Assembly (NCBI GenBank): GCA_039034155.1
Contig: JBCCBI010000001.1
Location: 1 to 44,218 of the forward strand
Direction of reading: 5' to 3'
Length of the DNA stretch: 44,218 bases
Origin: Deinococcota bacterium
Lineage (GTDB): Bacteria; Deinococcota; Deinococci; Deinococcales; Trueperaceae
This document shows, in pieces, positions 1-44,218 of the stretch. Position numbers and translations under genes: made by a program. The first letter of the stretch is position 1, and every line of letters begins with the position of its first letter. The notes below the pieces were generated by a model. The model worked only from the letters and a program-made list of their open reading frames with translations, searched no databases and had not been told where the DNA came from.

Positions 1-120
1 AGCAAGCTCATGATGCGTCACACAATTATAGAAAATGATAAAATCTCCCTTTCCTAAAGCACAACATCACACACAAGTCGTCTGCAAATGGCATCTCTTA
101 AAATTGCTATAGGTGTTCTC

Positions 121-168
121 AAACAATCACAAAGAAGGTGAAGCGCTGAGCATCCTCAACACTTCACC
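121..168 (-). terminator. Candidate intrinsic terminator after the sugar-binding protein gene
   Basis: The inverted repeat GGTGAAG (137-143) / CTTCACC (162-168) is followed, reading the minus strand, by a T-rich tract (plus-strand A-rich 121-136). It begins 14 nt past the stop at 182. Confidence 0.5.
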
Positions 169-181
169 CAAAGTCTTAAGT

Positions 182-1156
182 TTAGAAGTCGAATTCGTCG
201 AGGTTGTCTAGCGTAACAGTTACCCACGCTTGTCCGTAGATAACTTTGTCTTCAACGACAACGCTTTCGTAACCAGACTGGCCTAAGTCCATACCGGTTT
301 CAACGGTTTCGCCGTCGAGTACCATCTCGGCAACTTTAAGTGAGACGTAACCAGCAAGAGACGGATCCCAGAAGAACACGGCGTCTACTGCGCCAGTTTC
401 AATGTACTGACCGCCAATTGAAGGAAGGCTGGTGCCCATCACACAAGTTTGGTCTTCAAGACCGCGCTCTTCAATCACTTGCCCAATGCCAGCGACATCG
501 GTTGACGCACTACCTTGCATACCCTTAATGTTCGGGAAGGCGCGCAGGACTTCGCGGGCAGCATCAGCAGCTTCGCTCACGTCGTCATAGGTTTCATTTT
601 TATCGCCAACTAGCGTCATGTTTGGATAAGCTTCCATCTGGCGCTCAATGGCACCATCGACCCAGTCGTTGTGGGTTTCTGAGGTGAGGCTGCCGACAAA
701 CACAGCGTACTCGCCTTCTTCAGCCATGCAAGCTGCCAGTTGATCCATCAAATACGCGCCGTACTCACGGTTGCGGAAGGCTTCCACGTCGTAGTCGACA
801 TTTTGTTGGCTAGGTGCTTCGTGGGTAACTACTACGATGCCTTCTTCGCGGGCGCGGGCAAGCACAGGCTCGAGCGCTTCAGGTGAAAAGGGCACCACGG
901 TAATAGCATCTACGCCTTGTGCAATCATATCTTCAAGAATTTGCACTTGCAAGGCGGCATCTGCTTGGGTTGGCCCAAGTTGGAAGGCATCGGTGCCAGT
1001 GTCTTCGGCGTACTGCATGATGCCTTCTTCCATACGGTCAAACCACTGAATCCCAGACACTTTCACAATCATGGGAATGCGGCGTGCTTCCTGCGCGAGG
1101 GCAGCAGGTGCCAGCACAGCAGCAGCTAAGATGGATACAGCTAAAAATTTCTTCAT
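182..1156 (-). CDS. Periplasmic/extracytoplasmic sugar ABC transporter substrate-binding protein, PBP1 LsrB/RhaS-like
   Basis: The 324 aa ORF has an N-terminal signal peptide (MKKFLAVSILAAAVLAPAALAQ). It shows type I periplasmic-binding-fold similarity to LsrB/RhaS-type binders, including the C-terminal ...DEFDF ending (LsrB ends ...KYDF). An AAGGAA RBS precedes the ATG. Confidence 0.8.
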   Translation of the reverse strand: MKKFLAVSILAAAVLAPAALAQEARRIPMIVKVSGIQWFDRMEEGIMQYAEDTGTDAFQLGPTQADAALQVQILEDMIAQGVDAITVVPFSPEALEPVLARAREEGIVVVTHEAPSQQNVDYDVEAFRNREYGAYLMDQLAACMAEEGEYAVFVGSLTSETHNDWVDGAIERQMEAYPNMTLVGDKNETYDDVSEAADAAREVLRAFPNIKGMQGSASTDVAGIGQVIEERGLEDQTCVMGTSLPSIGGQYIETGAVDAVFFWDPSLAGYVSLKVAEMVLDGETVETGMDLGQSGYESVVVEDKVIYGQAWVTVTLDNLDEFDF

Positions 1157-1523
1157 AACGTTCCTTTCGTCACTTAATCATTGAGTAGTTGACTCAATAT
1201 TGAACATGCCTAATCTGTCTTCTTATAGTGCCAATTTTGGGTGATGCTCATATCTCTTAAAGATAGTTAAGCCCACAAAAGTGTTTTTAGCTTAAATGTC
1301 TTGGTGTGACCATGTAGATAAGCTTGTTATATGACCTTGTACAAGCAGCCTACGACGGCCTCAACTTTCACCTCCCCTAGCACACGTGAGCGTTAACATT
1401 TGGTGAATGTCATATCATGAAATTTGAGCAGGTTGACCCTTTTGGGGGTGGCTCGAGCCTCTGCTTGCTTTGCTAATAGCTGAACACTCGGCTCAGCGAC
1501 AGCTCGCCAGCAAACGCCAGCAC

Positions 1524-2864
1524 TCATGACAGCACCATACTTCGCCTAGATGTTGGCTCGGCTGTGTGACTTAAACTGTGTGGTTCTTGAATAATATCAC
1601 GCAAGCTGTTCAAAAAAAGCGCGACTGCGACACCATCCACCGCGCGGTGATCTGCTGATAGTGTGAAGCTGATGCTGTAGCCAGGGCGCAGCGCACCTGC
1701 CTCCACAAAAACATCTTCTTTAAGCGTTCCCACGGCTAACATCGCCACATTTGGCGGCAAAATAATGGCCGAAAAGGCCTCGACGTTGTACATGCCGAGG
1801 TTGGAAATGGCAAAGGTTGCTCCAGAAATATCGGCAGACGTTGCCCGCCCACTAGCTAGCCGCGCCCGCACCTCCCGCACGCGGGCGTGAACCTCGTGGG
1901 CAGTTAGTGTGTCTGCATCGTGCACAACGGAGGTCATGACCCCTTGCGGTGTGGCGGTAATAACGCCGATATGAACGTGCTTGTGTAACGTAAGCGCGTC
2001 TTCACGTGTGGCACTCGCGTTGAGGCGAGGGTGATCTTTGAGTGCACGTGCTACTGCCATCACCACAAGGTCGTTGATAGAGACACCCTGAAGACTGTCT
2101 GCCAAGTTTTGTAGCGCACTTGCATCTGCCCGTACGGTCACGTAAAAGTGGGGGATTTCAGCAAAGGATTGGGTGGTAACTCGAGCAGAAATTTGCTCGA
2201 CCTTAGTTAGTTTGTAACTCGTCGCGTCAACATCGTCTCGAGCCAGTAGCACATCATCTAACTGAGGTAAAGGTGATGCCACAGTCACATTAGATTTAGA
2301 TGGTGTCATCAGCTCAGGTTGCGTAACGGGTGATATTGATGTCTCAGTTAAATCAGCTTGACGTGCTGCAGCTTGTACGTCTTCACTGGTGATGCGCCCG
2401 CGTGGCCCGGTGCCGTCTACATCTGCTAAAGAAATATCCAATTCTCGAGCCAAGCGCCGTGCAGACGGTGATGCGCGATATTTGTGTTTGTCTTGAGGAG
2501 GTTCAGCAGGTGTACCTAAAGGCACATCAGATGATGCATTTGATGGCGCTTTAGAGGCGTCTTCCGTAGCTACCTGTGAAGGTGACTCTTGGCTGGACTC
2601 AGACATTGATTTAGAGGCTGGCTCGAGCCGCGCCACCACATCGCCCACCACTACCACATCGCCTGGATGAACGAGATGCTCGAGGAGTACACCACTTTCT
2701 AGAGCAGGCACTTCAACGGTGATTTTATCCGTTTGGACTTCAAACAGGGCATCCCCTCGAGTGACACTATCACCTACCTGCTTGAGCCACACTAAAACCT
2801 CAGCTTCGTCTGCCGTTTCACCCAGTTGTGGCAAGGTGATGTTGCTAACCTCAACGCCTGCCAT
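1524..2864 (-). CDS. Dihydrolipoamide acyltransferase (E2) of a 2-oxoacid/acetoin dehydrogenase complex
   Basis: The 446 aa ORF has an N-terminal lipoyl domain (EVQTDKITVEVPA), a Pro/Ser-rich linker and an E3-binding segment (ASPSARRLARELDISL). The C-terminal catalytic domain carries the SADHRAVDG motif. The start abuts the E1 beta stop (TAAATG). Confidence 0.9.
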   Translation of the reverse strand: MAGVEVSNITLPQLGETADEAEVLVWLKQVGDSVTRGDALFEVQTDKITVEVPALESGVLLEHLVHPGDVVVVGDVVARLEPASKSMSESSQESPSQVATEDASKAPSNASSDVPLGTPAEPPQDKHKYRASPSARRLARELDISLADVDGTGPRGRITSEDVQAAARQADLTETSISPVTQPELMTPSKSNVTVASPLPQLDDVLLARDDVDATSYKLTKVEQISARVTTQSFAEIPHFYVTVRADASALQNLADSLQGVSINDLVVMAVARALKDHPRLNASATREDALTLHKHVHIGVITATPQGVMTSVVHDADTLTAHEVHARVREVRARLASGRATSADISGATFAISNLGMYNVEAFSAIILPPNVAMLAVGTLKEDVFVEAGALRPGYSISFTLSADHRAVDGVAVALFLNSLRDIIQEPHSLSHTAEPTSRRSMVLS

Positions 2865-3929
2865 TTAGCGTGATGCTCCGGTTGTTTGACGGCTACTTAA
2901 TGCCAGCCGCGCTGCTTGCACAATCCGCATAACATCGGGCACAGCAGCAGCCTCTAATTCAGGTGAGACCGGAATGGGAATGTCTTCACCGCACACGCGC
3001 AAGATGGGTGCTTCTAAAAAGTCAAACGCATCTACTTGTAAACGGGCGACAAGTTCGGCGGCGACACTACCCGTGAACGTGTCTTCACTGATAACTACGG
3101 CACGTCCTGTGCGAGATACAGACTCCGCAAGAGTGTCACTATCCAATGGGTTCAAGGTACGTAGGTCGATGACCTCAGCATTAACATCATCTTCTTGAGC
3201 AAGTAACTTGGCAGCCTCGAGCGTTCTATGTAACATCCTCGAGTAACTAATGAGCGTAATATCAGTCCCAGACTTACGAACTGCTGCTTTGCCCACGGGT
3301 AGGGCGTCGTCTTCCAGCTCACCTTTGTGTGTGTAGAGCGATTTATGCTCGAGAAACATCACCGGGTCGTCACTTTGTAGGGCTGCTTTGAGCAAATAAT
3401 AAGCGTCACTGACGGTAGCAGGCATGTAAACCCGCAAGCCGGGCACGTGCATGAGCCAGGCTTCTAAACTTTGTGAGTGCTGCGCGCCCGCTGAACGACC
3501 TGTGCCGCCTTGCATGCGCAAGACCATCGGCACGCCCACCTGCCCGCCAAACATGTAGCGAATTTTGGCGGCTTGGTTGGCGATTTGGTCCATGGCAAGG
3601 CCTGCAAAATCTACGTACATAAGCTCCGCTACAGGTCGCAGTCCAGTCATAGCTGCGCCGATGGCAGTACCGACAATGGCGGCTTCGGAAATAGGGGTGT
3701 CGAGAACCCTACTCGCGCCAAAGTGCTCGTAGAGTCCTTTAGTTACGGCGTACGCACCACCGTAACGACCAACTTCTTCGCCAAGAATCACGACTCGAGC
3801 ATCCTCCGTCATGCCTTCCGCTAGCGCTTTACGCAAGGCGCTGCGGTAGTCGGTGACGTTAACCTCGAGTGGCTGAGTCATAATAGATTGGGCTGAGGTT
3901 GTCACAGAAGTCGTTGTTGAGGCTGTCAT
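2865..3929 (-). CDS. E1 component beta subunit (transketolase-like) of a 2-oxoacid/acetoin dehydrogenase
   Basis: The 354 aa ORF shows typical E1 beta similarity (VILGEEVGRYGGAYAVTKGL, DTPISEAAIVG). It overlaps the E1 alpha stop by 4 nt (ATGA). Confidence 0.9.
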   Translation of the reverse strand: MTASTTTSVTTSAQSIMTQPLEVNVTDYRSALRKALAEGMTEDARVVILGEEVGRYGGAYAVTKGLYEHFGASRVLDTPISEAAIVGTAIGAAMTGLRPVAELMYVDFAGLAMDQIANQAAKIRYMFGGQVGVPMVLRMQGGTGRSAGAQHSQSLEAWLMHVPGLRVYMPATVSDAYYLLKAALQSDDPVMFLEHKSLYTHKGELEDDALPVGKAAVRKSGTDITLISYSRMLHRTLEAAKLLAQEDDVNAEVIDLRTLNPLDSDTLAESVSRTGRAVVISEDTFTGSVAAELVARLQVDAFDFLEAPILRVCGEDIPIPVSPELEAAAVPDVMRIVQAARLALSSRQTTGASR

Positions 3930-4981
3930 GGTTGCCAGCTTTCAGCAACAGGGGTTGGTTTTGCAGCAGTTGGTGTGTAAACGTCTTCAAACATGCTGGT
4001 GAGAGTTGGAGGTTCAGCAGCTTCGGCAAAGCTAATGGCAGCATCCATCTCGGCATCTGCGTCACGTTGGATGGTGTCAAACTGCGTTTGGGTGAGGCTA
4101 CTAGCCGCAATGAGTTGGTCTCGAGCCCGGCCAATCGGGTCACGGGTACGTCCTTGGGCTTCTTCATCGGCATCTCGATACGGACTTTTATCTTTACGCG
4201 CGTGACCGTGGAAGCGGTAGCAACTGACCTCTAAAAAGACGGGCGTGCCCTGCCTAGCGACCTCTAATAACTCTGTGGCTTTTTGATACACCGCGCCAAC
4301 ATCCTCACCTGACACGCTGGCAGCCATGAGGCCAAACGCTTTGGCTCGAGCTGTGAAATCTAAGCTGGCTGCTGCCTGGTCAATGCGCGTGCCCATGCCG
4401 TATTGGTTGTTTATGCAGATAAAGGCTGCAGGTAAGTTCCATAGGGCTGCTAGGTTCATAGCCTCATACAAGATGCCTTGTTGCAGGGCGCCATCACCAA
4501 AAAAAGCTGCTGAAACATAAGGTTGTTGTAGGGTTTTGTACGAAAGTGCCGCGCCCACCACCGTGGGAATACCTCCGCCCACAATGGCGTTTGCGCCCAA
4601 ATGCCCGAGTTGCATATCGGCAATATGCATCGAGCCACCTTTGCCACGGCAGTAACCGCTCGCTTTGCCTGCAATTTCAGCCATCATGTGGTTGGGGTCA
4701 GCGCCACGGGCTAAAAAAATGCCGTGCCCACGGTGGTGGGTGGTGAACGAGTCGCCCTCTTGCAGTGCTAGTCCCACGCCAGCTGCCGCACCTTCTTCGC
4801 CAATCGACAAGTGCAACATGGTTCCGGCAGACTGACCTTTAAGAAACAACTCGCCGACGCGCTCTTCAAAACTGCGAATGCGCACCATGCTGGTGAGCAG
4901 CTCGAGCAGCACCTTGGTATCAATAGCATCGTTATTAGTAGCATCGAGGGTATTCGTAGTATCAGCTGAAGCACTGCTCAT
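3926..4981 (-). CDS. E1 component alpha subunit (TPP-dependent) of a 2-oxoacid/acetoin dehydrogenase
   Basis: The 351 aa ORF carries the TPP-binding motif GDGALQQG...NNQYG. Its start overlaps the regulator stop by 4 nt (ATGA). Confidence 0.9.
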   Translation of the reverse strand: MSSASADTTNTLDATNNDAIDTKVLLELLTSMVRIRSFEERVGELFLKGQSAGTMLHLSIGEEGAAAGVGLALQEGDSFTTHHRGHGIFLARGADPNHMMAEIAGKASGYCRGKGGSMHIADMQLGHLGANAIVGGGIPTVVGAALSYKTLQQPYVSAAFFGDGALQQGILYEAMNLAALWNLPAAFICINNQYGMGTRIDQAAASLDFTARAKAFGLMAASVSGEDVGAVYQKATELLEVARQGTPVFLEVSCYRFHGHARKDKSPYRDADEEAQGRTRDPIGRARDQLIAASSLTQTQFDTIQRDADAEMDAAISFAEAAEPPTLTSMFEDVYTPTAAKPTPVAESWQP

Positions 4982-5955
4982 GAGATAGCTACCTTGTGGG
5001 ACTCGAGCAACTTCACTGCTGTCACTTCATCTGTCACAAGTGTATTGATGTAACCGCCGCGCAACGCGCCCAAAATGGCAGGTACTTTGGCAAGCCCACC
5101 CGCCACCAAAAGCGTTGTGTCGATAGCGCGCAAGTCGGCTAGTTCTAGCCCCACCACACGGCCATCAAACTCGGTGCGAACAGGTTCGCCGTTGGCATCA
5201 TAAAAACGTGCTAGCAGATCGCCGACAGCCCCCTTCGCGCGTAATTCGGCCAGTTGAGGGCCAGACACAATTCCCGCTGTAGTCAGGGTGGCGTCTGGTG
5301 TAACTGTACCTGCACCAAGCAGGGCCACGTTGCAGGCTTTGGCTAGAGCCAAGGGTGTTCGGATACTAGGGTCACACAAAAGTGCCTCACGCAACTCAGG
5401 ATTTTCAAGTAACACTGGCGCGCACAAGTAATACATGCGCCCAGACAAACGCTCGGCAAACATGCGGGCGATGTCATTGGGGTTAACCGCAGGTAAGCTA
5501 TCAGCAATGCCGCCCATCATCATGACCACTGCGCTGTGGTCACGCTCGAGCGCGCGGAAGTGCTTCGCTGTCTCGAGCAGCGTTGCTCCCCAAGCCGTTC
5601 CTAAGGTCATGCCGTCTTCCAAAATTTTGGGGAGGTAACTTGCAGCTGCTTGTCCTAACAATTCCGTTAGGCGTTCAGTGTCTTGTGGGGTGGGCATCAC
5701 AAACGCGTCTTTAAGCTCGAGCTTACGTTTAAGGTCAGCCTCGAGCGCCAAACAATTGAACCTTTTATCAGACAATTGTATAGAAACAGCACCACTATCA
5801 AACCCGTCCCGCAAAAGCTTAATGACCCTCGAGCGGGGCATCTCGAGCAACTCAGCAATATCACTTTGAGTGAGACCTTCAACATGATAAAGCCATGCCA
5901 CACGTAAAATTACATCATTGGCGGCAGTATTAGAGGCTGTATTTTTGTCGTCCAT
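4978..5955 (-). CDS. SorC/DeoR(B. subtilis)-family sugar-phosphate-sensing transcriptional regulator
   Basis: The 325 aa ORF has an N-terminal HTH (LTQSDIAELLEMPRSRVIKLL) and a C-terminal SorC-type sugar-binding domain. It is the first gene of the E1/E2 operon. Confidence 0.85.
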   Translation of the reverse strand: MDDKNTASNTAANDVILRVAWLYHVEGLTQSDIAELLEMPRSRVIKLLRDGFDSGAVSIQLSDKRFNCLALEADLKRKLELKDAFVMPTPQDTERLTELLGQAAASYLPKILEDGMTLGTAWGATLLETAKHFRALERDHSAVVMMMGGIADSLPAVNPNDIARMFAERLSGRMYYLCAPVLLENPELREALLCDPSIRTPLALAKACNVALLGAGTVTPDATLTTAGIVSGPQLAELRAKGAVGDLLARFYDANGEPVRTEFDGRVVGLELADLRAIDTTLLVAGGLAKVPAILGALRGGYINTLVTDEVTAVKLLESHKVAIS

Positions 5956-6181
5956 GGGTTAGTGTATAAGGTTTGTTAATAAAGTGGTAGCCGTTAAGCA
6001 CACACTTGATATGCTACCAAGTAAGTACCAGACGCACTTAAAGACATCAAGATTAGTCCTTAAAAGCATCTTGATAAATAAGATGTCTCGAGCACCGCAG
6101 TAGGTCGTCAAACTAGCCTTGGTACTCGAGACGCTCAGGAGGTATGGAACTTTTGTCTCGTGCTGTTTTCAAATGTAGCAC

Positions 6182-6210
6182 TTGTCGTCACAAAGGTCAA
6201 GCCTTATAAT
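6182..6210 (+). promoter_or_regulatory. Candidate sigma-70-type promoter for the mtnA-like operon
   Basis: The elements are TTGTCG (6182-6187), a 17 nt spacer and a perfect TATAAT (6205-6210). This would give a leader of about 245 nt before the ATG at 6461. Confidence 0.35.
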
Positions 6211-6268
6211 TGCCTCATCATTTTGTTATCGATTTAAGCTGCCTAGGTATTAGATATTTTAGTTATTA

Positions 6269-6299
6269 GGTGTAGATGTTGGGTGTAGATGTTGGGTGT
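6269..6299. repeat. Tandem 13-nt direct repeat GGTGTAGATGTTG x2 plus a partial third copy
   Basis: Exact copies lie at 6269-6281 and 6282-6294, followed by GGTGT at 6295-6299. A related AGGTATTAGAT lies at 6245-6255. All sit in the divergent regulatory region. Confidence 0.85.
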
Positions 6300-6460
6300 C
6301 AACGCTGAGATGACTCGCTCAATCTCTGGTTTTGCATCGATGTGTTATGCAGTATCGTTAAGTAACACCCTACTGTAGACGTGAGTTTCACCAACAACCT
6401 CGAGCATGTCTGGCGAATGACCCCATATGTGCTTGATGCTTCGGGAGGATAATCTTTAAC

Positions 6461-7672
6461 ATGAATGTAAACGGCAAGCCCATGCGTACCATTTGGCTAG
6501 ACGCTCACAACCCCGGCGTGGTGCATATCATTGACCAGCAACAACTCCCTCACGTGTTTGAGGTGATGCAACTTAGGACTCTGGCAGATGTCGCTACAGC
6601 CATCAAAGATATGCACGTGCGCGGTGCTGGACTTATTGGAGCAACAGCGGGTTACGGCATGTACTTGGCAGCGTTAGACGCGCCCAAGACAAATATTGAT
6701 GCATTTTTAGCATCTTTGGAGCAGGCTGCAAGCACACTTCAAGCTACCCGACCAACGGCGGTGAATTTAGCATGGGCCTGCTCGAGGCAACTTACCAATA
6801 TCCGCAGTCAAATGGCCGCAGGTCTAGACGTTGAGGCACTTATTCAGGTCGCCAAAATCACCGCCCAAACCATTGCTGATGAAGACGCCAATTTTTGTAA
6901 GCGCATCGGTGAGCACGGGCTTCCCATCATACATAAGCTTTTACAGCAAAAATCTGGTGACACCATCAATATTCTGACGCATTGCAACGCAGGCTGGTTA
7001 GCCTTTGTTGATTACGGGTCAGCCACGGCCCCCATTTATGCAGCGTTTAATGCGGGCATCCCTTTACATGTCTGGGTAGACGAAACCCGGCCGCGCAACC
7101 AAGGGGCTAGCTTAACAGCGTGGGAACTTGGTCAGCACGGCGTCCCGCACACAATTATTGCGGACAATGTAGGTGGGCATCTCATGCAGCACGGTCTGGT
7201 GGACATGGTCATTGTTGGCAGTGACCGCACCAGCTACACAGGCGATGTTGGCAACAAAATTGGCACTTACCTCAAAGCCCTTGCTGCTAAAGATAATAAC
7301 GTTCCATTTTACGCGGCACTTCCTTCCTCTACCTTTGATTGGGCCTTGGAAGATGGTGTTCACGGCACACCTATTGAAGAACGTGCTGCTGACGAAGTAA
7401 CGCATATTTCGGGCGTTGCTGAATCAGGTCCAGCAGCAGGTCAGGTGACCAAAGTACGCATTACACCAGAAACGAGTCCTGCTAAAAATTATGGATTCGA
7501 TGTCACTCCAAGGCGCTTAGTCACCGGACTCATCACAGAGCGCGGGGTGTGTGCCGCTAATGCCGAAAGTGTCTTAGCGCTTTACCCCGAAAAACGTACC
7601 TTAGTGGAGCAGCACAAAGCAGTACATACAAATAGCAAAGATGGAGGTAAGCGTGTCGTATCAACCTCTTGA
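6461..7672 (+). CDS. mtnA: MtnA/eIF-2B-family aldose-1-phosphate isomerase (methylthioribose-1-P or 5-deoxyribose-1-P isomerase type)
   Basis: The 403 aa ORF matches the family N-terminus (IDQQQLPHVFEVMQLRT...AIKDMHVRGAGLIGATAGYG), and a GGGAGGA RBS lies upstream. The C-terminus is about 40 aa longer than typical MtnA. Confidence 0.85.
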   Translation: MNVNGKPMRTIWLDAHNPGVVHIIDQQQLPHVFEVMQLRTLADVATAIKDMHVRGAGLIGATAGYGMYLAALDAPKTNIDAFLASLEQAASTLQATRPTAVNLAWACSRQLTNIRSQMAAGLDVEALIQVAKITAQTIADEDANFCKRIGEHGLPIIHKLLQQKSGDTINILTHCNAGWLAFVDYGSATAPIYAAFNAGIPLHVWVDETRPRNQGASLTAWELGQHGVPHTIIADNVGGHLMQHGLVDMVIVGSDRTSYTGDVGNKIGTYLKALAAKDNNVPFYAALPSSTFDWALEDGVHGTPIEERAADEVTHISGVAESGPAAGQVTKVRITPETSPAKNYGFDVTPRRLVTGLITERGVCAANAESVLALYPEKRTLVEQHKAVHTNSKDGGKRVVSTS

Positions 7673-8942: not shown

Positions 8943-9107
8943 TCAATCTGTAACAAGTAACCTCCGATACACCTACCTCGAGACGCAACACAACTACTTC
9001 ACAAACGCCTTTTCTCCCTAGCTCCCCTTCCCCTTTCACAAAGAACCTCATCAAACATGTACTTCACTAACTCACATCACCCACCCTTACCCACAGGAGT
9101 TTAGATT

Positions 9108-25962: not shown

Positions 25963-25968
25963 AGAGAT

Positions 25969-31455: not shown

Positions 31456-31500
31456 TAAGTCAATTATAGACTTAGCCTTAACGGAAATAGTTTTTCGACA

Positions 31501-32865: not shown

Positions 32866-32894
32866 TTTACAAGATAGAGCATTAATCTCTCACC

Positions 32895-36712: not shown

Positions 36713-36741
36713 GTTTCTGAATAAGGTTTACAAAATGAATC

Positions 36742-36785
36742 AACCGACGCGCCTAGCAAAAGCTGAGCGCGTCGGTTTTTGTTTG
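36742..36785 (+). terminator. Intrinsic terminator of acnA
   Basis: There is a perfect 11 bp stem, AACCGACGCGC (36742-36752) / GCGCGTCGGTT (36767-36777), followed by a T-run. Confidence 0.85.
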
Positions 36786-36800
36786 TGATGTCGCGTGATA

Positions 36801-37463
36801 CTAAAGCCAGTCTGGACAGTTTGGGTTTAGTCTAATTAAATGCGTGTAAAATTCGCTATTCTTGGCTATCTGAGCAAGGATGTAATCTGGAGTTGTGTGA
36901 TTAACAGCAAGTGCTCGCAAGATAAATTCGTCTTCAGATGTTGCTATATCGTAAAGGCGCGAAAGCGCTGTATCATCGGTCCAGTCTGTACAACCAGCTT
37001 CATAAATGTCTTTGTAATTGGGAAGCAACTCAAAAACTGGGCGCTCCCGTTCAACATCTTCACCAGAGGAAGTATAAACAACTCGTTTTTCATAATTACC
37101 CTTGAACTTGCCAATCATTAGTAGACTCCCAGTTTGTATGTCTAGTGAGAACGTTCCAAAACCGGGAATGTCATGTTGTACATGCCATATATGACTTTGA
37201 CAACCAGCATAAAAGTGTTGGGGTAGAGAGACCTCCGTGAAAGTATCGTCCCAAGCAAGTTGAATATGGATAGAAACACTTGTATCCCAAGAAGAGTCTG
37301 TTGCATAGACAAAGACTAGGTGTCTAGCTTTTTTCTCTTTTAGATGGGCTAATGCCTCCTCACGTTTTTCTCGAACCTCTTGTTTCCAATCCTTTTTCTC
37401 TTTTAGACAGGCTAACGCCTTTTCACGCTTTTCTCTAACTTCTCGCTTCCAATCCTTTTCCAT
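36801..37463 (-). CDS. Hypothetical protein with N-terminal duplicated charged 21-aa repeat and a C-terminal LA.N..TP...L..IA segment
   Basis: The 220 aa ORF has no recognisable catalytic motif. It is AT-richer than its neighbours and contains no CTCGAG. Confidence 0.55.
   Translation of the reverse strand: MEKDWKREVREKREKALACLKEKKDWKQEVREKREEALAHLKEKKARHLVFVYATDSSWDTSVSIHIQLAWDDTFTEVSLPQHFYAGCQSHIWHVQHDIPGFGTFSLDIQTGSLLMIGKFKGNYEKRVVYTSSGEDVERERPVFELLPNYKDIYEAGCTDWTDDTALSRLYDIATSEDEFILRALAVNHTTPDYILAQIAKNSEFYTHLIRLNPNCPDWL
37330..37455. repeat. 63-bp tandem duplication inside the coding sequence
   Basis: The units are 37330-37392 and 37393-37455. They encode KDWKQEVREKREEALAHLKEK and KDWKREVREKREKALACLKEK. 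Confidence 0.85.
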
Positions 37464-37508
37464 AGCTACCTACATCCTGCAAACTGCAACATGAGTATCA
37501 CATAAATC

Positions 37509-38357
37509 TTAGACTCTTTCCTGAGCAGTCTGCAACGCCTCAGCTACCGCATGAATATCCTCAAAAACATAATCCGGCTGAATGCCTGTCTTCTGAATAT
37601 CTTCTTTGGTTGATACCCCAGAAAGTACCAAAATGCTCGTCATGCCTGCTCGCTGCGCGCCAAGAATAGCGGTTTCTAACCTGTCACCAATCATAGCGCT
37701 GGTGTCAGGACTAGCATTCAAGCGTTTGAGGGCTCCTTGAAAAATAATCTGCTCGGGTTTGCCTACGACAATGGGCTTCACACCGGATGCTGTACTCACG
37801 ACATCTAAAACCGCGCCTGCACCGGGAAGTTGTCCCAGTTCAGACGGAAAAGATGCATCAATGTTGGAGGCAATGAACGGCACACCAGCACGAACAAGCA
37901 AGGCTCCCATCGCGAGTAGGTCGTAGGTGAGGTCTCGAGCCAAGCCTCCTACAACGGCATCCACCGCCGTCAAGTTATCTGCCTCAGCTAACTCGCGTAC
38001 GTCATCCACGGAAACAACTTGCAAGCCCGCTTGTTGCACGGCATCGTGTAAACCGTCTTCGCCAATCACATAGGCACGGGTTGCCTGTGGATAGTTATCT
38101 TTCAAATAGCTGACGGTGGCATTCGCTGAGGTCACCACGTACTGTAAGTCCAGATCAATGCCCATATGGGCAAGTTTTGCCTCCATTTGAGCAGCCGTTT
38201 TAGTGGAATTATTGGAGGCAAGTGCCACACCGACACCTAGATCTCGAATACTGCTGAGACATTTGCCGATGCCTGGTACAGCTGTGTCTCCGTGCCACAA
38301 GACACCATCCATATCGATCACGAGGTTGTTAACGTTCAACGTTTGGTCTTGACTCAT
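37509..38357 (-). CDS. HAD-IIA family sugar phosphatase (NagD-like)
   Basis: HAD motifs are present: IDMDGVLW, VALASNNS, GKP and IGDRLETAILGAQRAG. Confidence 0.85.
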   Translation of the reverse strand: MSQDQTLNVNNLVIDMDGVLWHGDTAVPGIGKCLSSIRDLGVGVALASNNSTKTAAQMEAKLAHMGIDLDLQYVVTSANATVSYLKDNYPQATRAYVIGEDGLHDAVQQAGLQVVSVDDVRELAEADNLTAVDAVVGGLARDLTYDLLAMGALLVRAGVPFIASNIDASFPSELGQLPGAGAVLDVVSTASGVKPIVVGKPEQIIFQGALKRLNASPDTSAMIGDRLETAILGAQRAGMTSILVLSGVSTKEDIQKTGIQPDYVFEDIHAVAEALQTAQERV

Positions 38358-38511
38358 GTCCTGAGCATACCGCGCAGCTCATCGCCGCTGATGCTCATCA
38401 CCTTCCTTTTGATACGCCTATCAGCTGATGACTCTAACCTTGCGTGATACACTTGCTTCACTTTTAAGTAAGCGTTATTTTGCAAGATGATAGCTGTAAA
38501 GGAGGTACGTT

Positions 38512-39675
38512 ATGCCCGGTTTTTCTTCACTGATTGAAGGCTTGAAGCCCTCGAGCACGGTTGCATTTAACACTAAAGCTGGCGACATGCGCCGTAACGG
38601 CATAGATGTCATCGCCATGACCGCCGGTGAGCCAGACTTTCAACCACCTGAGCATGTGTTAGATGCTGCTAAAGAGGCAATCGCCAAAGGCATCACCAAA
38701 TACACCGCGCCAGCAGGGTCGTTTGAGTTGCGTGAGGCGGTGGCGGCTAAATTTAAGCGGGAAAATAATCTTGACTACACCCCGGAACAGGTAAGTGTGT
38801 CAACCGGAGGTAAACAGGTTTTATACAACGCCTACATGAGCGTGCTCGAGCCAGGTGATGAGGTCATCGTCCCCACACCTTGTTGGGTATCCTACGAAGC
38901 GCAAATTGGCTTAGCGGGTGGACGTTTTGTGCCTGTTCACGCGCCTGCAAGCGATGGCTTTATACCTGACCCAGAGGCAATTCGTGCAGCTATCACGCCA
39001 AAAACTAAAGTCATCACCATCAACTCCCCCTGTAACCCTACGGGTGCGGTTTATCCGCCGGAAGTTGTCAAAGCCATTGCCGACCTTGCCGAGGAACACG
39101 ACCTGTGGCTGTTTACCGATGACCTGTATGAGCACCTCATCTACGACGGTACATTTACGGCTGCCGCTCAGTTTTATCCTGAGCGTACGTTAATCATTCA
39201 CGGTGCCAGCAAAGCTTACGCGCTGACAGGTTGGCGCATTGGTTACGGCATTGGCCCGCGCAAGCTTATTTCGCTGATGACGCGTTTGCAGGGGCAAGTG
39301 ACGAGTGGGGCGAATGCACTTGCGCAGTATGCCGTCGTTGCAGCACTCAATGAACACGACAAAACAACGGCATTTATTGAGATGACGAAAAAAGCGTATA
39401 TAGAACGGCGGGATTTGTTGGTAAGTGGCCTAAACCGTCTAGGACTCACCACGCCCACGCCCAAAGGTGCGTTTTATGTGATGGCCGACCTTACGCCGAT
39501 TCACGCAGATGAATACGAGGCTGCGGTGACGTTGCTCGAGCAAGCCCACGTGGGTGTCGTTCCCGGCACAGATTTTCATGCACCTGGTCAGGCCCGCTTA
39601 AGTTACGCCACCAGTACCGAAAGCATCCAAACTGCGTTAGAACGCATTGAGAGTGTGCTGAGTACAACTGTGTAA
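38512..39675 (+). CDS. Class I pyridoxal-phosphate aminotransferase (aspartate aminotransferase type)
   Basis: The 387 aa ORF carries the PLP-lysine motif SKAYALTGWRIGY and NSPCNPTG. An AAGGAGG RBS precedes the start. Confidence 0.9.
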   Translation: MPGFSSLIEGLKPSSTVAFNTKAGDMRRNGIDVIAMTAGEPDFQPPEHVLDAAKEAIAKGITKYTAPAGSFELREAVAAKFKRENNLDYTPEQVSVSTGGKQVLYNAYMSVLEPGDEVIVPTPCWVSYEAQIGLAGGRFVPVHAPASDGFIPDPEAIRAAITPKTKVITINSPCNPTGAVYPPEVVKAIADLAEEHDLWLFTDDLYEHLIYDGTFTAAAQFYPERTLIIHGASKAYALTGWRIGYGIGPRKLISLMTRLQGQVTSGANALAQYAVVAALNEHDKTTAFIEMTKKAYIERRDLLVSGLNRLGLTTPTPKGAFYVMADLTPIHADEYEAAVTLLEQAHVGVVPGTDFHAPGQARLSYATSTESIQTALERIESVLSTTV

Positions 39676-39692
39676 GTTGTTAGAGACGAGTT

Positions 39693-40610
39693 TTATGCGT
39701 GCTCGAGGGCGGTAACGTCCCAATTTGCCTTGGTTGCACCCGCAAGGTAGGCGCTCTCGAGAAACTCGAGCAGTGCTGCCTTCGGATCGTCAGCTTGTCT
39801 TACATCGTCGTACATGAGCATTGCCATAGCGCTAGCGTCACCTACCCAAGTTGCGTCACTTGGGCCTAATGCCATTGTCCGCAAGCCTTCCGGTTCAGGA
39901 TACGTGTAGGAGTAAAACGCAGGCGCAGGCACGCTACTATCGCCGGGCCAAAAGCCAAACGAAATGACCTCATGAGAGTAAGCTTCTTTGTCGACGTTAG
40001 AGCCTCCATCCAATGGTGCAGCCCTTCCTGAAAAGCGCGTATAAGCAAGGTCAAACGAGTGCCAAAATAAGTGTACAGGCGTGCTTTTACCGCAAAATTT
40101 GCCCTTAAACTCACGAAACACAGCATCGATCCAAGTAAGAATATGCCAGTAGCGGGTCACAAATTCCGGGTCATAGCTAGCGTTTGTAGTGTCTTCCGCA
40201 AACGGGATGTCACTACCTACTTTGTCTGGGTCGTAAGGTTTCGCGAGGATGTCCACGTGAACGCCTAGCGTGTCAAGGCTAGTCATAACAGCCTCATAAA
40301 AGCTTGCTACTGACAGGCCATCCTCTAGCTTGATGACCTCTTTACCACCAGATGTGCTGCGTAACACAAGCATGTGCTCAACAAGATCAAACTCGAGGTC
40401 AATCAGCCCAGTTTGTAAGGGGATGGCTTGGGTCGTTAGCCCTCTAGGTGAGACATACAGTGGCGCATGCCACCAATGGTTTAAACGCGGGTGCAACGCT
40501 AGGCGCACTTTGCCGACAATCTGACAGTACAAGTTGAGCGTGCGTTTGCTCGCTTCCCACGCATCTAGCGGCAACTCAGGTAAGTTTGCAAAGATAGATA
40601 TTGTGTCCAT
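39693..40610 (-). CDS. DUF5996-like conserved hypothetical protein
   Basis: The 305 aa ORF carries motifs I associate with that family: NHWWHAPLYVSPRGLTT, FWHSFDLAYTRFSGR, EAYSHEVISFGFWPG and PAFYSYTYPEPEG. An AAGGAGG RBS precedes the start. Confidence 0.6.
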   Translation of the reverse strand: MDTISIFANLPELPLDAWEASKRTLNLYCQIVGKVRLALHPRLNHWWHAPLYVSPRGLTTQAIPLQTGLIDLEFDLVEHMLVLRSTSGGKEVIKLEDGLSVASFYEAVMTSLDTLGVHVDILAKPYDPDKVGSDIPFAEDTTNASYDPEFVTRYWHILTWIDAVFREFKGKFCGKSTPVHLFWHSFDLAYTRFSGRAAPLDGGSNVDKEAYSHEVISFGFWPGDSSVPAPAFYSYTYPEPEGLRTMALGPSDATWVGDASAMAMLMYDDVRQADDPKAALLEFLESAYLAGATKANWDVTALEHA

Positions 40611-40736
40611 ACCAAGCCTCCTTAAATAGATAGCAACCCCACAATGTCGTGATACATATGTTGCAGTGAGTTTAGGCTGTCACTGATGAAATCTCCCTTT
40701 CCCACGTGCTCCCCTTCTCCCTTTCCAAAAAGCAAT

Positions 40737-40774
40737 ATCATACTCTTTCCGGTTAATTCGTTAACGAATTAACC
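40737..40774 (-). promoter_or_regulatory. Candidate promoter with overlapping 24-bp perfect palindromic operator
   Basis: The perfect palindrome GGTTAATTCGTTAACGAATTAACC spans 40751-40774. On the minus strand, TTAACG (40764 to 40759), a 16 nt spacer and TATGAT (40742 to 40737) lie upstream of the DUF5996-like gene. Confidence 0.45.
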
Positions 40775-40789
40775 CACCTGGAAGGTGTA

Positions 40790-40862
40790 AAAACAGCAAC
40801 CGATTCTGATTAGAACGGCATAAATCCCGCAGGGGTTTATATAGTGTTTAATCGGAATCGGT
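40790..40862 (-). terminator. Candidate gnd terminator: nested hairpin followed by a T-tract on the minus strand
   Basis: The outer 13 bp stem is ACCGATTCTGATT (40799-40811) / AATCGGAATCGGT (40850-40862), with 1 mismatch. The inner 9 bp stem is ATAAATCCC / GGGGTTTAT (40820-40840). The minus strand then continues TGCTGTTTTTAC. Confidence 0.45.
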
Positions 40863-41016
40863 ATCACATGTCGGTAAGTCCGTAATAACATCTCGTGTAA
40901 GTGCTAAGAGAAGCTCGTTAATGCCGCTCTACACTTTATAAACCTCAGCATAAAAAGCGCACCAACATGCTTGTAGTTGAAGCTGTTGATACGCATTGAT
41001 GCATTAAGCTAGTCGT

Positions 41017-42468
41017 TTAAGCGTCGTAGGAGCTCGAGCTTACATCACCGCCGGTGCCCGTCCAATTCGTGTGGAAGTACTCGCCACGTGGTTTGTCGGT
41101 GCGTTCGTAGGTATGTGCGCCAAAGTAATCGCGTTGTGCTTGAATCATATTGGCAGGTAACCGCCCGCGCCTATAGCCATCATAAAAGGATAGCGCTGCT
41201 GACATGGCAGGCACGGCAATACCAAGTTCCACAGCTTTAGCAATGACACGTCGCCAAGCTGCTTGTGCGTTTGCAATGGCATCTTGAAAGTAGGGGTCAA
41301 CCAACAAGTTAACGAGGTTAGGATCGCGGTCGTAGGCATCTTTAATGTTATTCAAAAACACTGAGCGGATGATGCAGCCACCGCGCCACATGAGCGCGAG
41401 TCCGCCGTAGTTGAGGTTCCAATCATAGGCTTTAGCAGCGGCACGCATAAGCATGTAACCTTGTGCATAAGACACAATTTTAGAAGCGTAAACAGCATCC
41501 TCGAGGTCATTCACAAAGGCCTCTTGATCACCATCAAAACTTGTACCCGGACTACTTAAGTGGTCGGTAACTTGCATACGCTCATCTTTAAGGGCAGATA
41601 GCGAGCGAGCGGCCACGGCCTCACTAATCAGTGTGAGCGGAATACCCATATCCAAAGATGACACAGCCGTCCAGCGGCCCGTGCCTTTTTGCCCAGCAGC
41701 ATCCAAAATCACATCAATGAGGTACTCGCCGTCTTCTTGATAGCCCAAAATGTCGGTGGTAATTTCAATAAGATACGAATCCAGCTTGCCTTTGTTCCAA
41801 CGTCCAAACACCTCATGCATGTCGGCGTTGCTCATGCCCAAACCTGTACTCATAAGGTCGTAGGCTTCAGCGATGATTTGCATATCGCCGTATTCAATAC
41901 CGTTGTGGACCATTTTCACGTAGTGCCCTGCACCGTTTTCGCCCACCCAATCACAACAGGGTACGTCATCTACTTTGGCAGCGATACCTTGGAAGATGGG
42001 TTTAACGTACTCCCAAGCGTCTGGGCTGCCACCCGGCATGATTGACGGGCCAAAGCGGGCACCTTCTTCACCACCGGATACACCTGTACCGAGGAAGCGG
42101 AGTCCTTTTTCCTCGAGCATCTTAGTGCGCCGAATAGAATCTTCGTAGTTGGAGTTGCCGCCATCAATAATAATGTCGCCTTCTTCAAGTAAGGGCAAAA
42201 GTTGCTCAATAGTGGCATCTACGGGTTTACCTGCTTTAATCATGAGCATGACCCGGCGGGGGCGTTTGAGCGAACCCACAAATTCCTCGAGTGAATGTGC
42301 GCCGACAATCTCGGTATCTTTGGCTTCGTCCGCCATAAAGTCATCCACTTTGGAGGTTGTACGGTTGTAGACAGCGACCTTAAACCCATGGTCGTTCATA
42401 TTCAAAATGAGGTTTTGCCCCATAACTGCTAGGCCAATCAACCCAATATCTGCGTGTGCATCTGCCAT
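41017..42468 (-). CDS. gnd: 6-phosphogluconate dehydrogenase, decarboxylating
   Basis: Canonical Gnd sequence is present (IGLIGLAVMGQNL, GTGVSGGEEGAR). GAGGAG is followed by three consecutive ATGs at 42474, 42471 and 42468. The third has the best SD spacing, and the ORF-track start at 42513 is probably too long. Confidence 0.95.
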   Translation of the reverse strand: MADAHADIGLIGLAVMGQNLILNMNDHGFKVAVYNRTTSKVDDFMADEAKDTEIVGAHSLEEFVGSLKRPRRVMLMIKAGKPVDATIEQLLPLLEEGDIIIDGGNSNYEDSIRRTKMLEEKGLRFLGTGVSGGEEGARFGPSIMPGGSPDAWEYVKPIFQGIAAKVDDVPCCDWVGENGAGHYVKMVHNGIEYGDMQIIAEAYDLMSTGLGMSNADMHEVFGRWNKGKLDSYLIEITTDILGYQEDGEYLIDVILDAAGQKGTGRWTAVSSLDMGIPLTLISEAVAARSLSALKDERMQVTDHLSSPGTSFDGDQEAFVNDLEDAVYASKIVSYAQGYMLMRAAAKAYDWNLNYGGLALMWRGGCIIRSVFLNNIKDAYDRDPNLVNLLVDPYFQDAIANAQAAWRRVIAKAVELGIAVPAMSAALSFYDGYRRGRLPANMIQAQRDYFGAHTYERTDKPRGEYFHTNWTGTGGDVSSSSYDA

Positions 42469-42855
42469 CATCATCTCCTCTAGTTGGTTATACGTGGTTA
42501 CGTAGGGTGTCAACGTCTAACGCTTAACGTTGACATCTTATAGTCGTTCCAGGATAAATTCCCCCACACTAAATGGGTCTGTGTAGGCTCGCCTAGCTCG
42601 CATGATTAAGTTGCTAGGGCAACTCAAAATGGAAACGCTATTAAACACACCCACTTTAACCTACACGCCATACATCGTGATGATTACAGTGCATGATGTC
42701 TCACGCCTGGTGCTCATAGGAGCATAACAATAATAATGACGTTTCCAAACCACCATTTTAATGAGCTGAAAACGTCATATTTGTTTAGGCGCTGTAATAA
42801 ACTTCTCTTAAAGATATACCTTGATGTGATGCTGGTACGTCACCTACCCCGAGAC

Positions 42856-42897
42856 TTACCAGTTGCGATTTACCAGCTGCGATTTACCAGTTGCGAT
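42856..42897. repeat. 14-nt tandem repeat x3 (TTACCAGYTGCGAT) spanning the M23 peptidase stop codon
   Basis: The units are 42856-42869, 42870-42883 and 42884-42897. Each contains a minus-strand TAA. Confidence 0.85.
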
Positions 42898-43618
42898 TCA
42901 CCATCAGGGGTAAAGGATCAATAGCGTTCCACTCGCAGCTTTCGTAGGTGCCCGTGTAGACGCCAAAGTGCAAGTGAGGTGGGGTCGTGCGGGCGTTACC
43001 TGTGTTGCCAACGTAGCCAAGTAGGGTGTCAATATCTACCTGCTGACCTTCTTCAAGATCTTCTGCATAAGCAGACAAATGGGCATAGTAGTAGCGCCAG
43101 CCAGCAGCACCCACTACGGTTACGGTCATGCCGCCCAGAGGGTTATCGCCAATACGGTAAACGAAGCCAGGCGCAGCCGGATAAATGGGTGTGCCAATAG
43201 GTGCAAAAACATCTTGCCCTTCATGGCGGCGGCCGCCCCCGCGCGGAGCTAGGTAGGTGTCGGCAATTTCGCTTACCCGCCGCCCCTCAACCGGCATAAG
43301 CAAAGCTTGCTCGGGCGTTGCAGGCACGCGGGCAAAGTAGAGTGGCAACGTTTCACGATAGCGAGCGCTACGCTCGAGCCACGCGAGCCGCTCTGGACTT
43401 AAATTACTGGTATCAATTTCTCTTACTGGACAACTAATGCCCATAATTTCAGCTGTGCTGAGGTCATTGGGATTTGGATCAAGCGCATCCGCAGGTAAGT
43501 TGGCAAACCCTAGCGCAATACCACCTAACAGCACACTCCAAACTACCGCTTGACGTACTCGTGTTGGGGATAAATTAAAGGAATAATCCATGCTCAACAG
43601 CTTAACCTTGTAAGCCAT
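42884..43618 (-). CDS. M23-family metallopeptidase (peptidoglycan endopeptidase type)
   Basis: The M23 motifs HEGQDV and GNTGNARTTPPHLHFGVY are present. The N-terminus has a membrane or signal segment. Confidence 0.85.
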   Translation of the reverse strand: MAYKVKLLSMDYSFNLSPTRVRQAVVWSVLLGGIALGFANLPADALDPNPNDLSTAEIMGISCPVREIDTSNLSPERLAWLERSARYRETLPLYFARVPATPEQALLMPVEGRRVSEIADTYLAPRGGGRRHEGQDVFAPIGTPIYPAAPGFVYRIGDNPLGGMTVTVVGAAGWRYYYAHLSAYAEDLEEGQQVDIDTLLGYVGNTGNARTTPPHLHFGVYTGTYESCEWNAIDPLPLMVNRNW

Positions 43619-43704
43619 ATACGTTTGCGTGGCAGTTGTCAGACGACCTTAACCCTTTGTTTAGGGGGTCTTTATCTTAATTTCCCCCTATTCTCCGTAA
43701 GTGC

Positions 43705-44218
43705 CTACTGTTCTTCATAGTGCCAGGTGAGGCCGCCATCAACAAAATAGGTTGCACCCGTCACATAAGACGCTTCCTCTGAGGCTAAAAACGCAACCAC
43801 GCTCGAGACTTCTTTGGGTTTGCCCATACGTCCAAGGGAGATATTTTCACGCAGGGTTCTTAAAAGTTCGGGTTGCTCCATCAGGTCATCGTTAATGGGC
43901 GTACGAATTGCACCTGGTGCCACGCCGTTTACCGTGATGTCAAAGTTACCAAGTTCAACTGCCAAGTTGCGCGTGAGCATTTGCATACCACCTTTAGAAA
44001 GACAGTACGAGGTGAAGTTTGCAAAGGGTAAGTCTTCATGAACGGAGCTAATGTTGATAATGCGTCCGGGGCGTTTGGTTTCAAGTAAGTGTTTAGTCAC
44101 CGCCTGCGCAGCAAAAAATGCCCCTTTGAGGTTGACATTCATCACCAAGTCATACTGATCTTCGCTCACTTCCCAAAAGGGGGCTTTGCGGGTAATGCCC
44201 GCGTTATTCACAAGAATA
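43705..44218 (-). CDS. Short-chain dehydrogenase/reductase (glucose 1-dehydrogenase / 3-oxoacyl-ACP reductase-like), 5' end outside the window
   Basis: SDR motifs are present (NNAG, the catalytic S...YCLSK and PGAIRTP). The ORF runs off the right edge of the window. Confidence 0.85.
   Translation of the reverse strand, partial: ILVNNAGITRKAPFWEVSEDQYDLVMNVNLKGAFFAAQAVTKHLLETKRPGRIINISSVHEDLPFANFTSYCLSKGGMQMLTRNLAVELGNFDITVNGVAPGAIRTPINDDLMEQPELLRTLRENISLGRMGKPKEVSSVVAFLASEEASYVTGATYFVDGGLTWHYEEQ

Follow-up and report, generated by a model that had tools for sequence, protein, structure and literature searches.

Why should a short palindrome be written again and again into the genes and spacers of a bacterium that is not a cyanobacterium, and does the DNA word itself or the codon usage of its host account for it? 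The question is raised by a 44,218-nucleotide (nt) stretch of Deinococcota DNA (positions 1..44218, hereafter the window, these 44 kb being the genome data considered here), in which a preliminary description had noted about 79 copies of CTCGAG and about 20 of the eight-base palindrome GCTCGAGC. It had likened them to the highly iterated palindromes (HIPs) of cyanobacteria. An exact count gives the same numbers at identical positions. CTCGAG occurs 79 times (1.79 per kb), dispersed over the window and listed without strand, with starts at 869, 1452, 2180, 2237, 2444, 2622, 2679, 2756, 3216, 3238, 3348, 3794, 3864, 4120, 4345, 4901, 5002, 5545, 5572, 5716, 5740, 5828, 5842, 6087, 6125, 6399, 6781, 8259, 8795, 8977, 9179, 9768, 10609, 14444, 14706, 15588, 17795, 17834, 18068, 18737, 18962, 18973, 20374, 21109, 22172, 22918, 23281, 23417, 24232, 24389, 24719, 25564, 26327, 27274, 29751, 30054, 30477, 31915, 33368, 33447, 34544, 35480, 36003, 36491, 36586, 37934, 38550, 38845, 39535, 39702, 39756, 39765, 40392, 41033, 41500, 42112, 42286, 43373 and 43802. 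The 20 copies of GCTCGAGC (868..43379, likewise without strand) start at 868, 1451, 2621, 4344, 4900, 5544, 5715, 8258, 18067, 20373, 23280, 24231, 30053, 31914, 33446, 36585, 38844, 39534, 41032 and 43372. The answer developed below is that (G)CTCGAG(C) is a real, DNA-level, lineage-wide and preferentially conserved hyper-abundant palindrome. The suggestion of a HIP-like signature outside the cyanobacteria is borne out by its enrichment in every sequence context, its recurrence as a trait of related lineages and its preferential conservation.

The host can be placed from the gene content of the window, which includes cinA-recA-rny, aconitase, 6-phosphogluconate dehydrogenase and ndk. As had been supposed, this content is not cyanobacterial, and its closest relatives lie in the Deinococcota. 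Metagenome-assembled genomes (MAGs) of Trueperaceae have a RecA 75-76% identical to that of the window; RNase Y is 96% identical to a ‘Deinococcota bacterium’ MAG protein and 70% identical to that of Truepera radiovictrix. Judged by these protein sequences, the lineage is an uncultured member of the Deinococcota near the Trueperaceae. Elsewhere, proteins of the window were found only on 3-kb Logan contigs of SRR22824269, and the metagenome scan returned no relative of its 1208-aa amylase-like protein.

How far do these counts depart from chance? Shuffles that preserve dinucleotides give 7.2 ± 3.0 CTCGAG (maximum 16) and 0.58 ± 0.81 GCTCGAGC (maximum 4), and the observed 79 and 20 were never reached. 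Markov models, the check proposed at the outset, expect 6.4 to 17.3 CTCGAG at orders 0-3, far below the count; at order 4 the expectation is 61, because the motif itself makes the pentamers CTCGA and TCGAG abundant. The thought that many hexamers might be equally enriched proved wrong. Of the 4096 hexamers CTCGAG alone stands out (z = 28.6 against order 2), those that rank after it are its own overlapping sub-words, and palindromes besides CTCGAG are at expectation, the second by rank, GCGCGC, occurring 23 times against 20 expected. A 5' G and/or 3' C flanks 64 of the 79 sites (81%, where about 80% had been estimated), and the preference is symmetric, with G at -1 in 27 of 46 phase-0 sites and C at +1 in 27 of 46; taken over all sites, 53% of flanks conform to it. 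About 25% of the sites sit in the full 8-mer, and the main unit is the 6-mer. The flank profile reveals no conserved sequence beyond -1/+1 around the 79 sites, so every copy lies in unique sequence and not in a repeat element. Spacing in the window is not more even than random (coefficient of variation, CV, 1.12; one gap of 3.8 kb), and close pairs are no more frequent than expected (6 gaps of 30 nt or less, where 4.0 ± 1.9 would occur by chance).

Codon usage can be separated from a force on DNA by asking in which reading phases the sites fall. On a gene map made from long open reading frames (ORFs), 70 sites are coding and 9 non-coding, at 1.85 and 1.41 per kb, respectively (89% inside genes). 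Of the coding sites, 46 fall in phase 0 and encode Leu-Glu, and phases 1 and 2 have 12 each; the phases cited earlier for the sites at 869, 2622 and 2180, and the nine non-coding positions, are all correct. When synonymous codons are shuffled within genes, 21.5 ± 3.2 CTCGAG remain (maximum 32) against 79 observed, and GCTCGAGC falls to 1.95 (maximum 6) against 20; these totals include the 9 non-coding sites, which were left fixed. The shuffle that could have undone the claim does not reach the observed figure of about 80, and the claim that codon or dipeptide bias is insufficient therefore stands, all contexts being enriched. In phase 0, CTC-GAG is used at 47 of 101 Leu-Glu pairs against 9.2 expected (5.1-fold, 47% saturated). 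In phase 1, xCT-CGA-Gxx occurs at 11 of 75 [S/P/T/A]-Arg-[V/A/D/E/G] tripeptides against 1.15 expected (9.5-fold), although such sites need the Arg codon CGA, whose usage is only 6%. In phase 2, 12 of 78 opportunities are realised against 0.97 expected (12.3-fold), and non-coding DNA has 9 sites where its base composition predicts 0.97 (9.3-fold). An excess of around ten-fold appears alike wherever the protein code permits, which is what a force on the DNA word itself would be expected to produce.

Is this a property of one genome or of a lineage? The comparison set comprised about 90 recA/rny loci from genomes and metagenomes together with four Deinococcota plasmids; counts were compared with an order-2 Markov expectation and, separately, with synonymous-codon shuffles. 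Among relatives of the window, CTCGAG is found 30 times against 2.2 expected in locus L170 (GCA_964564405.1; RNase Y 96% identical; 84-86% nucleotide identity in most syntenic blocks, 83% overall), 41 times against 3.4 in L172 (GCA_964550765.1) and 44 against 4.0 in L173 (an 82% relative). Further examples are L083 (14 against 1.0), L084 (26 against 2.1), L151 (22 against 3.5), the 39% GC Trueperaceae MAG L001 (14 against 1.7) and Deinobacterium chartae (79 against 13). The extreme is reached in L134 and L135, uncultured Deinococcales from the JGI metagenomes Ga0123339 and Ga0209100, with 123 and 173 sites (8.8-9.6 per kb); taken with L138 and L161, the range is 5.5-9.9 sites per kb. Among named organisms, L135 is closest to Deinobacterium chartae and Deinococcus. 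In L134 and L135 the word occupies 86-87% of Leu-Glu pairs and stands at 10-11 per kb outside ORFs. Sites in L135 are spaced a little more evenly than chance would give (CV 0.85 against 0.99 ± 0.07), and this extreme lineage has 29 gaps of 30 nt or less where 43 ± 5 are expected.

All of these CTCGAG-rich loci exceed their synonymous shuffles, with z = 9-26. The excess is smaller in T. radiovictrix and on the Oceanithermus profundus and Allomeiothermus silvanus plasmids (z = 5-10), and smaller again in very GC-rich Trueperaceae loci (z = 2-4). Deinococcus maricopensis shows no excess over the synonymous shuffle (z = 0.1), the D. radiodurans MP1 plasmid has a deficit (z = -2.3), and D. geothermalis and D. 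peraridilitoris show no excess by the Markov expectation. Seventy-odd loci of other phyla have no CTCGAG excess. The excess recurs among relatives that span 39-68% GC, and its flanks vary: G..C in the window lineage, C..G in D. chartae and Thermus thermophilus, and both on the Oceanithermus and Allomeiothermus plasmids. The signature is a patchy trait of lineages within the Deinococcota, and its intensity varies.

Alignment of orthologous DNA can show whether the sites are kept. The window was aligned to L170 over 14.3 kb at 83% identity, and L135 to L134 at 87.6%. Between the window and L170, 17 of 24 sites are kept (71%) against 35.5% of control hexamers (Fisher p = 0.0008), and where a codon pair is conserved in amino acids it is also identical in nucleotides in 87% of site pairs against 42% of others. 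Between L135 and L134, 73 of 82 sites are kept (89%), compared with about 50% for controls; identity at third codon positions is 92.7% within sites and 75.3% outside, and at non-coding positions 97.6% and 83.4%. Conservation of the sites thus clearly exceeds the background, and gains at times change amino acids. Examples from the orthologue comparison are AQA->ARA, AQS->ASS, LKE->LEG, IEK->LEK/LEQ, MEV->LEV and LDL->LEL. The conserved part of RNase Y in the extreme lineage contains 14 Leu-Glu pairs, a doubling compared with the usual 5-8. In L134 and L135, motif pressure visibly reshapes protein sequences. Turnover also occurs, with 7 sites specific to the window and 11 to L170, and its pattern is curiously bimodal, single-step intermediates being scarce. 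Among these changed sites, 8 of 18 (44%) differ at three or more of the six bases, against 12.8% of changed control hexamers (p = 0.001); the same tendency is seen between L135 and L134 (6 of 23, 26%, against 12.2%; p = 0.054). Such multi-base differences make one-off intermediates look short-lived.

Within the window the sites are unevenly shared among genes. The densest stretch is the operon for 2-oxoacid dehydrogenase E2, E1-beta and E1-alpha with a SorC-type regulator, the last assigned by Pfam (1524..5955, minus strand). It carries 21 sites, or about one per 211 bp, close to the one per 200 bp first reported. Its genes have 2.8-7.2 sites per kb each and a G+C content at third codon positions (GC3) typical of the window; CTCGAG is found at 12 of their 22 Leu-Glu pairs, and 7 phase-1 sites recruit the rare Arg codon CGA. 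Three further sites (6087, 6125 and 6399; 6087..6404, no strand) lie in the intergenic stretch from which the SorC-type regulator gene and an mtnA-like gene diverge. On the plus strand, 3' of ndk, two copies 11 nt apart form the stem of an intrinsic-terminator hairpin (18959..18981; GACCTCGAGcaatGCTCGAGGTT followed by TTTTATT), with 10 pairs, a 3-nt loop, a T-run and a minimum free energy of -24.3 kcal/mol (z = -4.1).

At the other end, site density follows GC3 across the genes of the window (Spearman rho 0.49, p = 0.007). Two large IPT/TIG-PKD surface-protein genes (11772..17021, minus strand; GC3 0.36-0.39) have 3 sites in 5.2 kb, the first DUF2330 paralogue (19084-20526, plus strand, low GC3) has one, and a low-GC3 ORF without a family match (36801-37463, minus strand), which contains an internal duplicated KEKKDWKQEVREKRE segment, has none. 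Across the site-poor genes at 11772-17021 and 36801-37463, GC3 is 0.34-0.39. These low-GC3, site-poor genes are probably recently acquired DNA in which the motif has not yet accumulated. The preliminary description had drawn attention to the absence of sites from recA and from the ORF at 36801-37463. Both are indeed free of CTCGAG, but the observation carries little weight: recA offers no more than two Leu-Glu pairs, so that its lack of sites is not significant, and the ORF offers none and is atypically low in GC3.

Taken together, the excess in all contexts, the conservation, the gains that change proteins and the scarcity in compositionally foreign genes imply a directional force, whether selection or biased transmission or repair. 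What could its agent be? Methylomes of the same phylum offer a candidate. In Blow et al. 2016 (PMC4752239, table S3), Type II methyltransferases that produce CTCG(m6A)G (m6A, N6-methyladenine) and have no partner endonuclease are listed for three Thermales species: M.Mhy14884I of Marinithermus hydrothermalis, annotated to the Eco57I/TaqI family (94.6% of sites methylated), M.Mru1279II of Meiothermus ruber (99.5%) and M.Mch9957IV of M. chliarophilus (94.1%). The same study describes an orphan CTCGAG methyltransferase in Nocardiaceae whose motif clusters at the replication origin; it reports methylation and origin-proximal clusters, not genome-wide hyper-abundance (PMC4752239). A hot-spring epigenome preprint lists CTCGAG and TCGA among methylated motifs common to one host-virus interaction group and, separately, describes conserved methylated-motif sets in Deinococcota (bioRxiv 10.64898/2026.06.24.734251). 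By analogy with these enzymes, the CTCGAG signature is probably linked to methylation.

We read CTCGAG as a HIP-type genome signature, a word kept by a directional force, which an m6A methyltransferase would modify and which would serve as a self mark when DNA is exchanged, and consider this reading evenly poised between right and wrong. Molecular drive through DNA uptake is established for the uptake signal sequences (USS) and DNA uptake sequences (DUS) and is now proposed for HIP1, and the Deinococcota are naturally transformable. On this model each CTCGAG would be modified by a solitary CTCG(m6A)G N6-adenine methyltransferase like those of the Thermales, and the methylated word would act as a ‘self’ mark in DNA transactions. 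The mark would most plausibly favor the uptake or homologous recombination of conspecific DNA, which natural transformation in the phylum would allow, and alleles that bear a site would spread by molecular drive. Such a drive would account for the spread into all contexts, for the amino-acid changes and for the scarcity in foreign DNA, and may also explain the multi-nucleotide replacements at changed sites. In Synechococcus 7002, HIP1 in methylated form increases natural transformation by as much as 100-fold (bioRxiv 10.1101/2024.09.10.611283), and HIP1 abundance co-varies with DNA-uptake machinery (bioRxiv 10.64898/2026.06.24.733823).

Several points weigh against this model of a methylated self mark. 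The 44-kb window contains no methyltransferase gene, and phmmer with M.TaqI as query (its sequence confirmed by PDB 1AQJ), run on the complete ORF sets of the fetched loci, gave no relevant match; a large protein search with the same query listed TCGA-type orthologues only, and tblastn against plasmids gave no Deinococcota match. The earlier parallel with orphan methyltransferases has outside support in the Thermales, where the partnerless enzymes are documented in three species. The one Eco57I-family gene encountered lies in L173 (3652-5946, minus strand) and encodes a 764-aa protein with an N-terminal PD-(D/E)XK nuclease and an Eco57I-family N6-adenine methyltransferase domain, of Type IIG or BREX-PglX type and apparently without a C-terminal specificity domain. 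The gene sits between ndk and cinA, a place from which it is absent in L172 and in the window. It is unlikely to be the CTCGAG enzyme and is better described as a strain-specific, truncated Type IIG / PglX insertion. A. silvanus is without CTCGAG methylation (PMC4752239), yet its plasmid is enriched (z = 5.4). On the T. thermophilus plasmid pTT27 the count does not exceed what codon usage gives (z = -0.4). Selection and biased repair cannot be told apart by conservation. Xu et al. 2018 (PMC5861425) based their case for selection on HIP1 on the same kind of evidence. The role in DNA exchange is argued by analogy only, and a 6-mer is short for a specific uptake signal. DNA uptake in Thermus is reported to be sequence-independent.

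Other explanations must be considered, and the main alternative to a role in DNA exchange is a housekeeping role like that of Dam. Here a solitary methyltransferase would mark CTCGAG for strand discrimination in mismatch repair, for replication timing or for nucleoid organisation, and selection would keep a dense and fairly even cover of sites. The partnerless methyltransferases of the Thermales methylomes apply equally well to this explanation, as does the Nocardiaceae orphan enzyme with its motif clusters at the origin (PMC4752239); Elhai's model of HIP1 is precisely one of strand discrimination in mismatch repair. The sites are kept in coding and non-coding DNA alike, and the slightly even spacing in the extreme lineage (the CV of 0.85 given above) lends weak support. 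However, spacing in the window is not even and includes the 3.8-kb gap, Dam-type marks such as GATC in E. coli need neither a 10-fold excess nor 87% saturation of Leu-Glu pairs, and four Deinococcus species manage without the motif. The methyltransferase missing from the window of this genome counts against a Dam-like mark as well. We consider this explanation improbable but deserving of serious attention.

A second alternative is the creation of sites by repair. If CTCGAG carried 5-methylcytosine (m5C), very-short-patch repair by a Vsr-like enzyme could turn the T:G mismatch of CTTGAG/CTCAAG back into CTCGAG. This variant is the most depleted one-off neighbor in the window (13 against 29, ratio 0.45), and CTT-GAG is used at 1 of 101 Leu-Glu pairs against about 9 expected, a pattern suggestive of the repair-driven creation of sites mooted earlier. 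Four groups of relatives do not repeat the depletion. Close relatives stand at a ratio of 0.75 and the extreme loci at 1.5-2.0, with 0.75, 1.4 and 2.0 for three groups of relatives; in the extreme loci the transition neighbors TTCGAG and CTTGAG are over-represented. Where a site has changed, the difference is often at 3 or 4 positions and not at one, the modification documented in the phylum is m6A and not m5C, and the window holds no vsr or m5C methyltransferase gene. Such repair is a poor candidate for the cause.

Restriction avoidance has less still in its favor and strikes us as very doubtful. It would require a long-resident TCGA-specific (TaqI-type) system that purges TCGA from the genome, CTCGAG being exempt through a second methyltransferase. 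TCGA outside CTCGAG does occur only 76 times in the window against 115-172 expected, TaqI-type methyltransferases are common in Thermus according to the protein search, and on pTT27 of T. thermophilus HB8 (L163, 50001-100000) 59 of 62 TCGA lie inside CTCGAG, 55 of these in CCTCGAGG. Exemption, however, gives survival and not a 12-fold absolute excess; it leaves the recruitment of rare codons (CGA, TCG) and the site-creating amino-acid changes unexplained, and TCGA is not depleted in L172 (110 against 79 expected) or L173 (116 against 88). On pTT27 itself, total CTCGAG equals the synonymous-shuffle expectation and TCGA seems purged outside the CCTCGAGG context. Plain codon usage with frequent Leu-Glu, or a dispersed repeat of the repetitive extragenic palindrome (REP) or miniature inverted-repeat transposable element (MITE) kind, has practically no chance of being the answer: 58% of the sites are in-frame CTC-GAG, and in high-GC relatives codon usage alone gives a 2- to 3-fold excess over Markov (T. 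thermophilus), but the synonymous shuffle, the 9- to 12-fold enrichment in phases 1 and 2 and in non-coding DNA, and the flank profile refute it.

Some other features of the window can be recorded here. The tandem DUF2330 paralogues (19084-20526 and 20629-21945, plus strand) are 65% identical; the first has a GC3 of 0.39 against 0.52 in the second and carries a Pro/Thr-rich insertion, and the single CTCGAG that each carries does not fall at a homologous position in the two. On the plus strand, a class II aldolase ORF (9108-10169) overlaps by 236 nt, in a different frame, with a short-chain dehydrogenase ORF (9934-11082). The segment 9108-11082 resembles a single bifunctional aldolase/dehydrogenase gene that a frameshift has broken in two, through either sequencing error or pseudogene formation. 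The place downstream of rny is variable within otherwise conserved synteny between the window and L170: the window has a DUF6882 gene 3' of rny (31157-32865 region) and L170 has a PIN/MazE toxin-antitoxin pair instead (6926-7565). GATC occurs 72 times in the window against about 160 expected, and 27 against 58, 17 against 74 and 21 against 66 times in L170, L172 and L173, respectively, which suggests long exposure to GATC-directed restriction activity. No Rfam RNA families were found in the window.

HIPs have so far been treated as a cyanobacterial peculiarity. We found no publication on CTCGAG hyper-abundance in Deinococcota, although the literature searched is incomplete and this is absence of evidence only. 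The broader proposition is that the Deinococcota independently evolved a HIP-type system, in which a methylated palindrome was driven to as many as 10 sites per kb, saturating Leu-Glu pairs and inflating Leu-Glu content, and was kept by selection or biased transmission tied to a solitary m6A methyltransferase and to DNA exchange. We advance it tentatively, as slightly less than an even prospect. A second, unrelated case would give comparative leverage, with another word, another methylation chemistry and close relatives without the motif. If the proposition is true, on/off contrasts such as Deinobacterium versus Deinococcus, or the window lineage versus T. thermophilus, would, with hosts that can be grown and transformed, make the 30-year-old question of the purpose of HIPs directly testable. 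For instance, it can be asked which genes co-vary with the signature, whether methylation is needed and whether the word promotes transformation or repair. Cultivable hosts exist in Deinobacterium chartae (GCA_014202645.1), Truepera radiovictrix (CP002049) and Meiothermus, and genetic tools are available for Thermus and Deinococcus. There are practical consequences as well. By skewing the use of codon pairs and even the composition of proteins, the motif bears on codon models, on the detection of horizontal transfer and on the binning of Deinococcota MAGs, and XhoI, if used for cloning or mapping, would cut such genomes every 100-550 bp.

How, then, does CTCGAG compare with known systems? It can be distinguished from several of them without difficulty. 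It is over- and not under-represented, which sets it apart from the sites of restriction-site avoidance; it is its own reverse complement and hence not a polar signal of the Chi or FtsK-orienting polar sequence (KOPS) type; and with 89% of sites inside genes and no extended consensus it is not a REP or MITE element. The CCWGG of the Dcm/Vsr system of E. coli is likewise a methyltransferase target that is enriched and not avoided, but the effect there is well under 2-fold with a clear deficit of the T variant, compared with a 12-fold excess and a deficit that is not reproducible for CTCGAG. The USS of Pasteurellaceae and the DUS of Neisseriaceae are closer in several respects. They too occur at about 1-2 per kb, lie inside genes with effects on peptides and are rare in foreign DNA; one CTCGAG pair forms a terminator (18959-18981), close pairs overall being no commoner than by chance, and the host phylum is naturally transformable. 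USS and DUS, however, are 9-12 nt long, asymmetric and bound by a competence receptor, whereas CTCGAG is a palindromic 6-mer with bias at -1/+1 only and no extended consensus, and identity with them is rejected. The orphan enzymes of Blow et al. (PMC4752239) recognize the same word, three of them in the same phylum, with no partner nuclease listed.

The nearest match is HIP1, GCGATCGC, together with the alternate highly iterated palindromes of cyanobacteria (Robinson 1995; Elhai 2015, PMC4390886; Xu et al. 2018, PMC5861425). It is not HIP1 proper, for CGATCG occurs 0 times in the window and the host belongs to the Deinococcota. Like HIP1, CTCGAG is a short, GC-rich palindrome with a methyltransferase-type core and preferred palindromic flanks, exceeds Markov and codon nulls ten-fold or more, is found in every phase as well as in non-coding DNA, and lies in unique contexts. 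It is preferentially conserved between genomes by the same test that Xu et al. applied (PMC5861425), and it is patchy across lineages with variant flanks, solitary methyltransferases for its core being documented in the phylum. The differences lie in the word, an XhoI-type site in Deinococcota; in the mark, documented as m6A at CTCGAG compared with m6A at GATC and m5C at CGATCG for HIP1; in the unit, which is mainly a 6-mer; and in density, which reaches about 10 per kb in one lineage, compared with a quoted HIP1 maximum of about 1 per 350 nt. At the level of sequence, CTCGAG has every property that defines the HIP class, and the support for its methyltransferase comes from the literature on its Thermales relatives.

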